Shown here in pieces: positions 6,001-9,000 of a stretch of DNA of 50,003 nucleotides. The DNA lies in the IMG/VR virus record IMGVR_UViG_2609459850_000002; one strand, 5' to 3'. Positions within the stretch are counted from its first letter, which is position 1, and the number at the start of each line of letters is the position of its first letter. Source of the stretch: a virus (taxonomy: Duplodnaviria; Heunggongvirae; Uroviricota; Caudoviricetes). The position numbers were made by a program.

Positions 6001-9000
6001 CGGTGCCCCCGAAGCCATCCGGCACCATCTGGTCGCAGTACTGCCCGATGGCATACAGCGCCCACTTGTCCACATCCGCCGCCCCCAGACGTTTTCCCAT
6101 GCCGTAGCGCGGGTGAGTCAGCATGTCCCACAGACACCAGGCCGGATTGTTGCTGTATGCCGGTTTCAGACTGCCGTCCCAGATACCACTGTACGTGCGT
6201 TTTTCCGGGTCATAGTTTGACGGCACCTGGATGATGCGACCGCGGATATGGTAGTTCACCGTCATCTGCTGACCACCAAACTGCTCCGCATCCACCTGCA
6301 TCCCCACAATGGCCGTGTTCGGGTAGCACTGTTTCACATCGATGATTTCGGTGTATGACGACCACAGCGTTCTGTTCTGCAGCTGGTCCGTGGTGCTGTC
6401 CGCCGTCTCCCTGACCATCCGGATGTTAAAGGGGCGGGGAGGCAGATTATCCAGAATCACCGAGGCCAGGAACTGTGAGGTGGTCTTGCCGTTAATGGTG
6501 ACATCCTTTTCTGTCACCCAGTTACCGTTACGCTGTAACTGAATCAGCAGACGGACAGAGGACGGATTACGGTCACCCTTTGACGTGGTCTCCACCAGTG
6601 ACTGCACCCCGAAGGTCACCCGCAGGCGGTCAATGTTCGCTGACGTAATGGTGCGTGTTACCGGTTTTGCCCTGGTCACTTCGACACCCAGTACAGTTTC
6701 AGAGCCGGAGGACTCAAAGCCTTCCGGTGGTGTCTGCTCCTGCTCCCCGGCACGCCAGACCGCGGTCACACCGTGTATCACGGGATTACCGTCCGTGTCC
6801 GTCAGCGGGGTTTTGTTCACCAGAATACTCTGCAGGCCTTTCACCGGGCCATCTATCGGTCCCTCACCAATCGCATCAATCACGCTCATCATCTGCGTGG
6901 ATTTGAGATTATCCTTCGCCTCACGAGGCGTGTGTGCCTTACCGCCACCTTTTCCCATACAGCCTTCCCCTGAATAAATTAACCGCCACTTGCCATTCCG
7001 TACAGAAGTCGGATATCCTTCGCCCGAAAAGCATGAAACACATTTCTGCCATGCTAAAGAGAAACCCCGGTATCAGCAGATACCGGGGTTTTCTTTCATG
7101 CCCACCGATAATCCTGTTGGTTAAAACCGGTAATGGCATAAAAATTCTGAATATCTTCACATTTTCACACACTGACTGTGGCGCTTATAATTTCGCTGCG
7201 TTAGTGTTTTTTTGCCCGAGTAACAAAAACAACTCCTTAACATTGATCTTCATTTGTCTGTCCCCGCAGCTCCGCGATCACTGCGGGATTTTTTTATGTT
7301 TTATCCCTGTCGCCCGATAACCACGACCGTTCCGCCCCCGCCTTCATCACGGGTGCTGATGTCCTGGGATATACGGCGGGAGCCAACCAGCATTTCCCCG
7401 TAAGGCACCGGCATCGGGTTCCCCTGGGCAATCATGTTATCCAGCGAGGAAAAGTACGTGTTCTGTCTGCCGTTATCCGTTGCGCGGTAATCCGGTGTTT
7501 TTGCCTTCGGGGCCAGCATCTGGGCCACACCGCCCAGAATCATGCTGGCTCCAAGTGAAAACAGCATCGTGGTGGCAGAAAAACCACCGGCTGCCAGGGC
7601 TGAACCCCATAACGCCATTGATGCCCCGGCAGTGAAGAAAGAGCCCACGATGGCTGCCGCCCCCAGCACAATCTGCAGTCCACCCTTTCCGGCCCCGGCC
7701 AGTCGCGGCACAATATGGATGACCGTTCCCTCACCCAGCTGTTCGTGAAGACGGGCGTACACCGCCTCCGGTGCCGTGTCATAACCGGCAATACGTATCT
7801 GGTACCAGCCTTCGTTCATCTGACGGCGAAAGCCCGGCACCTGTAACGACAGCGCCCGGATGGCTTCCGCTGCCGTGTTCACATACAGGCTGAGGCGGCG
7901 GCCAAATCGTTGTAAATCCCCGTGAAGGCAGATGCGTGCCAGTGGCGGTGACGCCAGACAGAATGCGTTCGTCGTTGCCATTTTTCGGAATACCTCTCCC
8001 GTTTACTCAGTTGTTCAGGCAGATGGTGAAGCAGCTCACCGTTGCCGCAGTAAATGGCGGCATGGTTCGGTACCGAAGCACCAAAGCAGCACAGCAGAAT
8101 ATCGCCCGCCTGTGCAGAGGACAGGGGCACCCGGTAAAAGCCGGTGACCGCCATATTGTCCAGGTAAAGGTTCTGACCGTTGCGCCACCAGTCATCCTCG
8201 CGATGAAAATCCGGCATTTCAGTCCCCGCCAGATGATAAGCATCCCGGAACAGCGTGTAACAGTCCGTCACCCCGTGCTCAAAGCGCCGTCCTGTCAGAT
8301 GTGGCACACAGCGGAATTTGTGAATGTCACCCCGGCAGACCAGCCACCAGGGCAGTGCGCTTTTTATCTGCAGCCGCCGGTCAGCCTCGCTCAGCCAGGG
8401 CAGCCCACCGGGATGACTGTGGACCAGTGCCACAATCTCCCCCTGCATCTCTGCCCGCAGCCAGTCTTCCGGTGCGATACGAAAATACGCCTCCGGCTCT
8501 GCAGAAATATTCACACAAGGGATATACCACTCCCCCTCCGGCGTGCTTATCACGAAGCCGCACGACTCCGCAGGCGCACACCGCCGGGCATGCGCCAGAA
8601 TCGCTGATTCAGTCTGTGTCATAAACCGGGATTTACTGCGAAAGTTTATTAATGGAAAGGAAACCGCCAAAATTGCCGACATTCCTGCGCAGTTCACACC
8701 CGCGCATGCACTTGCTGCATCTGTCCTTACGGATATCCGTGGTGGGGTTGTCGAACTCATCCGCCACCGCAGGACCGTTATACCCGCATTCATCTCCCCG
8801 GTAATCCCACATACAGGTGTTCGCCAGCATGATGCGACCGGGAAACAGCGCCCCATCCGTCTCGGTCGGTGTAGCCAGCACAAACGAGGCCGTCATGGCT
8901 GTCAGCTGCGACATCTGCTCCACCACCCAGCGGTCACTCAGCTCCTGCTCCGGGTCCGCCTCCGGATTGCCCGCAACGAAATTCACCGCATCCAGAAAAC

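Follow-up and report, generated by a model that had tools for sequence, protein, structure and literature searches.

The gap between tail genes I and J

The window, a 50,003-nucleotide stretch of DNA from a virus of the Caudoviricetes (IMG/VR record IMGVR_UViG_2609459850_000002), carries the tail assembly gene I and the tip attachment gene J on its minus strand, and the ORFs of the two genes leave a gap of 342 bp between them (6959-7300; Table 1). The sequence-only reading had reported a separating insert of about 340 bp at this junction and had called I and J essentially contiguous in lambda. The insert stands, at 342 bp versus 60 bp in lambda, and the description of lambda is roughly right, although a 60-bp gap lies between the end of I at 15444 and the start of J at 15505. 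Because an exact 25-mer spanning the -35 element of the insert was found in at least 120 IMG/VR viral contigs and the whole 342 bp is present in 1445 of 5426 complete E. coli genomes, the features of the insert go beyond chance. RefSeq carries no annotation at the insert in the listed E. coli genome matches. When Rfam 15 was searched with the whole window at the gathering threshold and with 6850-7400 at E ≤ 10, nothing credible was found in the insert: within 6850-7400 no family reached its gathering threshold, the best hit, to a Streptococcus sRNA, scored 27.3 bits against a gathering threshold of 48, and the insert gave no match with an E-value below 0.02.

Table 1. Features of the I-J junction, in order of position in the window
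Feature	Position	Strand	Remarks
Tail gene J ORF	3485..6958	-	Pfam gpJ domains
J (tip attachment) start codon	6956..6958	-	Product begins MGKGGGK...
Module L1, non-coding, 179 bp, between J start and pasB module	6959..7137	.	J ribosome-binding site at left end
Weak promoter-like site	6990..7019	+	TTGCCA-18-TATCCT; 9/12 matches
Second small hairpin, in L1	7030..7055	.	AGCATG-N14-CATGCT; predicted on both strands
Perfect palindrome	7062..7091	.	13-bp arms, loop AGCA; A-tract and U-tract flanks on both strands
Conserved AT-rich block 5' of pasB -35	7138..7163	+	Left boundary of pasB module
pasB sigma-70 promoter	7164..7191	+	TTCACA 7164-7169, 16-nt spacer, TATAAT 7186-7191; 11/12 consensus matches
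Predicted primary pasB transcript, ~98 nt	7198..7295	+	Start assumed 7 nt past -10
Published PasB sRNA, 83 nt, PasB-2 allele	7213..7295	+	Coordinates transferred from NC_011601 1466343->1466261(-)
Single-stranded body, candidate seed	7233..7250	+	CUCCUUA 7233-7239, AUCUU 7246-7250
PasB intrinsic terminator / Hfq-binding module	7263..7295	+	CCCGCAG/CTGCGGG stem, 11-nt loop, A, U7
Tail gene I ORF	7301..7981	-	Pfam Lambda_tail_I
I (tail assembly) stop codon	7301..7303	-	5 nt from PasB 3' end

The promoter, the terminator and a palindrome had earlier been described as one unit of the insert, but they belong to two separate modules: the palindrome lies in a 179-bp block, hereafter L1, which is replaced elsewhere beside the promoter-terminator unit, pasB. 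Comparison of the I-J junction across related prophages, a check proposed with the sequence-only reading, showed that pasB is retained and the left-hand block is swapped for unrelated sequence. Homology to E2348/69, PhiR12, an Stx2c phage and Sakai starts at about 7135-7138 irrespective of the left-hand sequence, and the AT-rich block that begins at this boundary is possibly an UP element or a regulator site.

A promoter scan found three promoter-like sites in the region, compared with 0.8 expected. The proposed sigma-70-like plus-strand promoter with a perfect TATAAT is present, and its -35 and xATAAT -10 elements are retained in 40 of 40 pasB variants. Promoter geometry predicts a transcript start at about 7198; the 5' GCGTTA is conserved in the family, with G1, C2, T5 and A6 invariant and G3 and T4 conserved in at least 90% of a 15-sequence alignment. 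The hairpin with seven T that had been placed about 100 nt past the promoter was also found, with arms at 7263-7269 and 7281-7287, the T run at 7289-7295 and the end about 98 nt past the predicted start. In 15 diverse variants the terminator stem is invariant and indels occur only in the loop. The RNAalifold consensus structure consists of the terminator alone, with 0 compensatory pairs; since the stem is invariant, this absence of covariation is uninformative rather than negative. Taken as a whole, the RNA has an unremarkable folding energy (z = -1.1 to -1.3). In the body, the AUCUU columns of the family alignment are invariant and those of CUCCUU nearly so, RNAalifold leaves the region unpaired, and CUCCUUA is complementary to the Shine-Dalgarno sequence AAGGAG. 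The unit has the class features of an Hfq-dependent trans-acting sRNA, namely its own promoter, a Rho-independent terminator with a U-tail and an unstructured seed region.

Identity of the plus-strand unit with PasB

The published Northern probe for PasB, AATCCCGCAGTGATCGCGGAGCT, matches 7268-7290 on the minus strand at 23 of 23 positions (shuffles matching, 0/100), and the exact minus-strand match of the probe means that the RNA is a plus-strand transcript. Positions 7213-7295 are identical to PasB of EPEC E2348/69 at 82 of 83 nucleotides, the sole difference being at position 27 (window 7239), where the window has A instead of C; PasB and PasB-2 differ at this same position (Zhu, Shabalina and Storz 2026, bioRxiv 10.64898/2026.05.13.724894). 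The 75 nt upstream of PasB contain one mismatch to E2348/69, at 7144. Prophage PP6 of E2348/69 has the PasB gene in its I-J gap, on the strand opposite to the tail genes. That locus (E2348CN_0006, EPEC O127:H6 E2348/69 PP6) shares with the window the I-J site, the strand and a 3' end a few nucleotides from the I stop, whereas its gap measures 240 bp and a J-proximal block, L2, stands there in place of the window's 179-bp L1 with the palindrome. Judged by these matches, the promoter-terminator unit between I and J is pasB, an already published Hfq-dependent sRNA gene of E. coli lambdoid prophages. The small plus-strand transcript running from the TATAAT promoter to the hairpin and U7, as postulated from the raw sequence, corresponds to this RNA, for which Northern data exist on the nearly identical EPEC allele. 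The 3' end of PasB is the last U of the U7 run. Its published 5' end, 7213, lies 15 nt downstream of the start at about 7198 predicted from the -10 element; this offset, which makes the primary 5' end uncertain, would be due either to processing of the RNA or to imprecision of the coverage-based estimate.

In EPEC, PasB gave Northern bands of the predicted size and showed Hfq-dependent stability (Pearl Mizrahi et al. 2021, PMC8550237, Table S6, Fig. 3A). Its expression was higher under non-activating conditions, and RNA-seq of wild type versus hfq mutant gave log2 fold changes of -6.8 and -2.4 (padj 2e-40 and 4e-6; PMC8550237), the direction of change being taken here from the text of that paper on Hfq-dependent stability. 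By RIL-seq, PasB had 37 interactions, ranking 15th by interaction number, with partners encoded elsewhere in both the core and the accessory genome; its functional analysis was deferred to future work, and the support for its targets consists of RIL-seq chimeras (PMC8550237).

Other known systems were compared with the unit. AgvB and AsxR (Tree et al. 2014) are like PasB prophage-borne and Hfq-bound, with their own promoter and terminator, a conserved 3' part and a variable 5' or seed part, but they lie downstream of PR' near stx rather than in the tail operon, measure 51-60 nt and have no sequence similarity to it. Identity with either was rejected on the ground of their position downstream of PR'; Rfam RF02702 and RF02703 had no match in the window at the gathering threshold nor in 6850-7400 at E ≤ 10, and the AgvB model did find the Sakai control loci. 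The sRNA svsR (PMC12803456), at the 3' end of cI, is unrelated, and HnrS (EcOnc10-12, PMC13502914) measures 66 nt and does not lie at I-J. The EcOnc11/12 copies of HnrS are located about 5 kb from the AgvB1/EcOnc03 sites of Sp10/Sp9, and it is these sites that are downstream of PR'. Lambdoid morons, in the account of Juhala et al. (2000) as given in PMC4104026, are autonomous promoter-gene-terminator units expressed from the prophage. By that account pasB resembles a moron, being an autonomous unit between genes nearly adjacent in the reference phage for which expression from the prophage is expected; unlike a moron, it has an RNA rather than a protein as cargo, points against the late operon and is accompanied by a second, operon-direction terminator.

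Variation of the pasB family and of L1

EcOnc22/23/24 of EHEC Sakai are RNAs of about 85 nt on Northern blots that are destabilised in an hfq mutant (Tree et al. 2014, PMC4104026, Table S2). The first 23 nt of their probe match the bodies of homologous sRNAs located at the I-J junctions of Sakai Sp15, Sp14 and Sp11; the probe text comprises 33 nt, and the remainder beyond nt 23 differs from the genome, possibly owing to PDF extraction. The published peak positions follow an older Sakai record, for which calibration on AgvB1 gave an offset of some +137 to +146 nt, and the site assignment is confirmed directly by the probe match. EcOnc22/23/24 (Sp15, Sp14, Sp11) share with PasB the junction, the orientation, the terminator stem, the AAUCUUC motif and Hfq dependence. 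In contrast, they have diverged from the window's PasB in the spacer between -35 and -10, in the 5' half of the RNA and in the stretch preceding the terminator, and their seed therefore probably differs. On sequence grounds, EcOnc22/23/24 are diverged members of the PasB family at one site; this link is absent from Table S6 of PMC8550237, which gives no EHEC homologue for PasB, and from Zhu et al., where the term 'EcOnc' does not occur.

Across 40 family variants, the promoter and the terminator stem are constant and the body is variable, with indels of 1, 2, 5 and 8 nt that are not multiples of three. A constant promoter and terminator, a variable body and a predicted structure confined to the terminator correspond to the usual anatomy of Hfq sRNAs. 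One common variant, with about 650 E. coli records, retains L1 together with the promoter and the terminator and has a different body; this body probably has different targets. A contig scan with a loose pattern (ATCTT...CCCGCA...TGCGGGATTTTTT), which also matched generic terminators in unrelated phyla, gave three true family members among the at least 120 loci listed, one in Escherichia albertii and two, probably through contamination, on very small contigs of Parendozoicomonas and Streptomyces assemblies.

Of 1451 E. coli records, 1442 have L1 with an identity of at least 99%, and the block shows 0 differences where the adjoining J and I differ by 2-4%; no diverged copy was found elsewhere. 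In other prophages its place beside pasB is taken by the unrelated L2 block of 75-95 bp, which on the operon sense strand has a GC hairpin and then UUGUUUUU, in the same place as the L1 palindrome, and L2 variants have U-A, U-G or C-G at one stem position. The arms of the L1 palindrome, AAACCCCGGTATC (7062-7074) and GATACCGGGGTTT (7079-7091), are 13 nt long and 100% complementary around a 4-nt loop. The perfect palindromic hairpin with U-rich flanks on both strands is thereby real and longer than the 10-bp stem first reported; on either strand it is A-rich on its 5' side and U-rich on its 3' side. Its 81-nt plus-strand context folds at -31.9 kcal/mol (z = -6.5). The GC-rich perfect hairpin, with a stem and U-run that can be read on both strands, is a probable bidirectional intrinsic terminator. 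A simple terminator scan did not list the hairpin at 7062-7091, in our view because pairing between the A/U flanks can lengthen the stem so that it takes in part of the T-run. The second small hairpin in L1 has no comparative support because L1 is invariant. The conservation of L1 exceeds what a plain terminator would seem to need.

Proposed action of PasB and alternative readings

We propose, with a probability of about 0.9, that the insert consists of pasB (PasB-2, a trans-acting Hfq sRNA cassette, 7138-7300) and a separate non-coding L1 (6959-7137). pasB would be a self-contained 163-bp cassette placed between I and J of a lambdoid (PPompW-type) prophage and directed against the late operon. 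Its sigma-70 promoter would make transcription independent of the late operon, and the transcript would end at the intrinsic terminator with its U7 tail, giving an RNA of about 83-98 nt that Hfq would bind and stabilise. The unstructured A/U-rich body, with CUCCUUA and AUCUU, would then pair in trans with mRNAs encoded by the host core genome and by other mobile elements. The existence of the RNA, its Hfq dependence and the Hfq-mediated chimeras come from published work on the E2348/69 allele, with its single-nucleotide difference; we infer that the window allele behaves like it and that the conserved single-stranded stretch is the seed. The L1 palindrome would most likely act as a bidirectional terminator insulating pasB and J from each other, and during lytic growth Q-modified RNA polymerase may read through it.

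L1 might instead encode a second small RNA, either a plus-strand RNA of about 72 nt or a minus-strand RNA derived from the 3' part of I and carrying anti-PasB sequence, which we regard as unlikely. A promoter-like site lies upstream, the plus strand of 7020-7100 is predicted to form a hairpin at its 5' side that an A/U linker joins to a terminator hairpin with UUUUCUUUC (z = -6.5), and L1 is unvarying amid a polymorphic neighbourhood. However, TATCCT makes a poor -10, Rfam gave no match with an E-value below 0.02, none of the EcOnc Hfq peaks tabulated by Tree et al. was tied to an L1 RNA, and the invariance of L1, which precludes a comparative signal, could reflect nothing more than a young block spread by recombination. 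That the site at 6990-7019 and the hairpin at 7062-7091 define the plus-strand RNA is speculative. The plus-strand option would start from the 6990-7019 promoter, and both options would end at the palindrome. We hold to a similarly doubtful degree that I-J is a modular RNA cassette site, with an unvarying promoter and terminator around a swappable seed (PasB type, a 'type B' body, EcOnc22-24 type), and that in the window L1 is a coupled second functional RNA element under selection. In that case L1 would either specify another sRNA or form the 3' end of an anti-PasB transcript, and selection, not recent spread, would account for its near-zero diversity across about 1440 genomes of E. coli.

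It is quite improbable that PasB acts mainly in cis, pairing with the I-J stretch of the late mRNA so that RNase III cleavage or a block of read-through lowers J. PasB does lie on the strand opposite to the tail operon, 5 nt past the I stop, as a perfect complement of the I-J transcript, and a terminator in the operon sense just upstream of J is retained in the two unrelated modules L1 and L2. Nevertheless, PasB (7213-7295) falls wholly within the spacer between the J start (6958) and the I stop (7301-7303), with no overlap with either coding sequence or with the J ribosome-binding site, more than 240 nt away. In lambda, the late operon is not transcribed in the lysogen, and in lytic growth Q-modified polymerase ignores terminators. 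Furthermore, the sRNA body varies freely among prophages in which I and J are similar, which fits changing targets in trans, and many RIL-seq partners of PasB are encoded elsewhere. When RNAduplex was run with the PasB body along the 50 kb, the J leader came only in the top 1.7% of the scanned segments, the scan being non-discriminating. The earlier suggestions of an antisense regulator of the tail operon and of an attenuator of J are not supported as they were put: PasB does not overlap I or J coding sequence, and the published data describe an Hfq-dependent sRNA with 37 RIL-seq partners encoded elsewhere.

A decayed or unrecognised coding gene, in the form of a 66-77-aa minus-strand ORF or a 128-aa plus-strand ORF (6934-7320), is very improbable: ORFs exist mechanically and the record of phage ASU11 annotates the 66-77-aa minus-strand ORF as a 'hypothetical protein', but RefSeq has no such annotation in the listed genomes, the candidate ORFs cross the perfect palindrome and the sRNA terminator, their start codons have no preceding Shine-Dalgarno sequence, variants carry indels of 1, 2, 5 and 8 nt, and L1 is replaced wholesale by L2. 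The non-coding character of the insert, for which a coding-gene remnant was the alternative to be examined, is upheld by Pfam and PHROG searches with the three insert-crossing ORFs, none of which found a match (best E-values 0.23 and 0.28).

The evidence points to PasB being a trans-acting Hfq sRNA, and nothing in it shows antisense regulation or attenuation of J. Since this sRNA had already been published, the finding alone adds little; a reading of raw sequence nevertheless caught a true sRNA gene overlooked by RefSeq annotation and Rfam. PasB has no Rfam model. Placing PasB and EcOnc22/23/24 in one family makes a comparison of targets between EPEC and EHEC possible. In addition, the operon-facing terminator upstream of J in both unrelated modules, or the invariance of L1, may mark a further regulatory element.

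Identity of the unit between I and J

Between the minus-strand tail genes I and J lie 342 bp (6959-7300) in the window and 60 bp in lambda, which bears out the sequence-only reading that extra sequence splits them. The I frame, 226 aa from an ATG at 7981, shares about 100 nt (7879-7981) with the end of the upstream K frame, as in lambda (I start 14773, K end 14875). Since I is annotated as a shorter protein of 193 aa in E2348/69 and WS3294A, its start codon in the window is uncertain.

The plus-strand promoter with TATAAT, and the hairpin with seven T downstream of it, were both found as described. 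No Rfam family matching the insert was found, and the I-J site was unannotated in RefSeq among the genome matches listed. PasB, an 83-nt RNA, has been mapped to the minus strand of NC_011601 (1466343->1466261) in prophage PP6, between E2348C_1436 and E2348C_1437, with the Northern probe AATCCCGCAGTGATCGCGGAGCT (Pearl Mizrahi et al. 2021, PMC8550237, Table S6). These two genes of E2348/69 correspond to tail assembly gene I and gpJ; their 240-bp gap contains PasB, oriented against both. The probe matched the window exactly at 7268-7290 on the minus strand, indicating that the RNA is plus-strand. The window RNA and E2348/69 PasB are identical at 82 of 83 positions, and the 75 nt upstream differ by one base. 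In the RNA, the sole difference (E2348/69 C, window A) falls at position 27, where PasB and PasB-2 are stated to differ (Zhu, Shabalina and Storz 2026, bioRxiv 10.64898/2026.05.13.724894). Judged by sequence comparison, the promoter-terminator unit is therefore the already known pasB in its PasB-2 allele.

In EPEC, the PasB Northern band agrees with the size predicted by RNA-seq, the stability of the RNA is Hfq-dependent, and its expression is stronger under non-activating conditions; the RNA-seq hfq comparison gave log2 fold changes of -6.8 and -2.4 for pasB, and the RNA ranked 15th among RNAs by number of RIL-seq interactions (37), while its function was deferred to later work, with no validated target (PMC8550237). 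Complete genomes contain 1,158 PasB matches (Zhu et al. 2026). The window also encodes other RNAs, among them tandem copies of STnc100, which has been argued to share an ancestor with PasD (Zhu et al. 2026).

Features located in the window
Feature	Position	Strand	Basis or detail
J	3485-6958	minus	ORF; eight Pfam matches, of which six are strong matches to gpJ/tail-tip domain families
L1 palindrome	7062-7074 and 7079-7091	both	perfect 13-nt arms, 4-nt loop
pasB promoter	7164-7191	plus	TTCACA-16-TATAAT; promoter scan
PasB RNA	7213-7295	plus	coordinate transfer from E2348/69; 3' end is last T of run
pasB terminator hairpin	7263-7287	plus	CCCGCAG/CTGCGGG, then seven T at 7289-7295
I	7301-7981	minus	ORF; Pfam Lambda_tail_I
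STnc100, two tandem copies	29953-30141 and 30417-30610	minus	Rfam, 132 and 138 bits
tRNA genes (two)	30877-30950 and 30961-31033	minus	
sok antitoxin (hok/sok locus)	37673-37848	minus	Rfam
DicF	46899-46950	plus	Rfam
IsrK	47184-47260	plus	Rfam
C4 antisense RNA	47285-47372	plus	Rfam

The PasB family

An exact 25-mer around the -35 element was present in at least 120 IMG/VR contigs, and these together with other loci gave 40 distinct promoter-plus-RNA variants. The conserved parts are two TTCACA repeats, an xATAAT -10 element, the six bases transcribed first (GCGTTA) and the stem of the terminator. Between these ends the body is variable, with indel lengths that are not multiples of three, and keeps two short motifs: CUCCUUA, complementary to a Shine-Dalgarno sequence, and AUCUU, invariant in the family alignment. 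The terminator stem was the only structure predicted by RNAalifold; since it never varies, there is no covariation for or against it.

A common variant, type B, has the body GUCGUGAUAUAAGAAUAAUUCCUUACACUUAAUCUUCGUAAC in a locus otherwise identical, with the same promoter, terminator and L1 (the J-proximal 6959-7137), in strains such as WS3294A and VR50 (comparison loci L125 and L126, 1680-1838). It accounts for 647 E. coli records at 90-95% identity, presumably has a different target set, and may have been left out of the published count, in which PasB variants differ by only a few nucleotides (Zhu et al. 2026).

In Sakai, the gap between I and J of prophages Sp15 (L128, 3335-3427), Sp14 and Sp11 contains a more diverged member. 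EcOnc22/23/24 were reported as plus-strand Hfq-crosslinking peaks, with a product of ~85 nt on Northern blot that is destabilised in an hfq mutant (Tree et al. 2014, PMC4104026). Their coordinates refer to an older Sakai record; after correction by an offset calibrated on AgvB1 (about +137 to +146 nt), the peaks fall on the sRNA of these gaps. The Northern probe, which is printed as 33 nt and agrees with the genome over its first 23 nt only, matches the sRNA body of each gap over those 23 nt. Judged by these matches, EcOnc22/23/24 are diverged PasB-family members at the same junction, a link not drawn in Pearl Mizrahi et al. 2021 or Zhu et al. 2026. E. coli-type pasB-family sequence on tiny contigs of Parendozoicomonas haliclonae (460 bp) and Streptomyces flavalbus (3.4 kb) assemblies is most likely contamination.

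L1, L2 and candidate terminators upstream of J

The hairpin and the promoter-terminator pair had been taken as parts of one insert. Both exist, but homology to E2348/69, Sakai, PhiR12 and Stx2c phages begins only at ~7135-7138, dividing the insert into L1 (179 bp) and the pasB module; in those prophages an unrelated 75-95-bp module, L2, lies left of pasB in place of L1. The L1 palindrome is perfect, with arms of 13 nt and not the 10 claimed. L1 is non-coding, since the ORFs that cross it match nothing in Pfam or PHROG, run through the palindrome and lack ribosome-binding sites.

L1 is predicted to fold into hairpins on either strand, the central one being the palindrome extended by A-tract/U-tract pairing, an architecture that resembles a bidirectional intrinsic terminator. 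At the equivalent place in L2, a GC hairpin of 9 bp precedes UUGUUUUU, a combination that reads as a terminator on the tail-operon sense strand only; one stem position is U-A, U-G or C-G among L2 variants. Together, these elements suggest that two unrelated modules each keep a terminator on the sense strand a short way upstream of J.

Of 5426 complete E. coli genomes, 1446 carry L1; its identity is 99% or more in 1442 records, and no diverged copy was found in the collections searched. Compared with WS3294A and VR50, it has 0 differences in 179 nt, whereas divergence is 3.5-3.9% in the adjacent 1.5 kb of J, 2.2-3.8% in I and 37% in the pasB body. This invariance may come from selection or from a young block spread by recombination.

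The spacer is tolerant of insertions. In strain 1504D004, an accessory gene of the IS66 family (TnpB) separates pasB from J (L127, 511-1500); in IMG/VR, the pasB promoter of one contig is split and L1 of another partly replaced by insertions that are probably IS elements. In one viral contig, the L1 palindrome is precisely deleted between TTTCT repeats.

Roles of PasB and L1

The original sighting is confirmed as an observation and its interpretation is partly supported: the proposed small plus-strand transcript corresponds to pasB by the exact probe match, but its proposed role as a cis-antisense RNA or attenuator in the tail operon is unlikely and has no direct support. Complementarity of PasB to the late mRNA between I and J would allow that role, yet a freely varying body and many trans partners fit it poorly. 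The best-supported reading is that pasB would be an autonomous cassette that the prophage expresses, whose RNA would be stabilised by Hfq via the terminator hairpin and U-tail and would pair in trans via its unstructured body. Because the promoter predicts a 5' end at ~7198 and the published estimate is 7213, the RNA may be processed downstream of a U-run. L1 would most likely insulate transcription on both strands, and Q-modified polymerase would read through it in lytic growth. The residual unexplained biology is modest: L1 and the conserved sense-strand terminator upstream of J.
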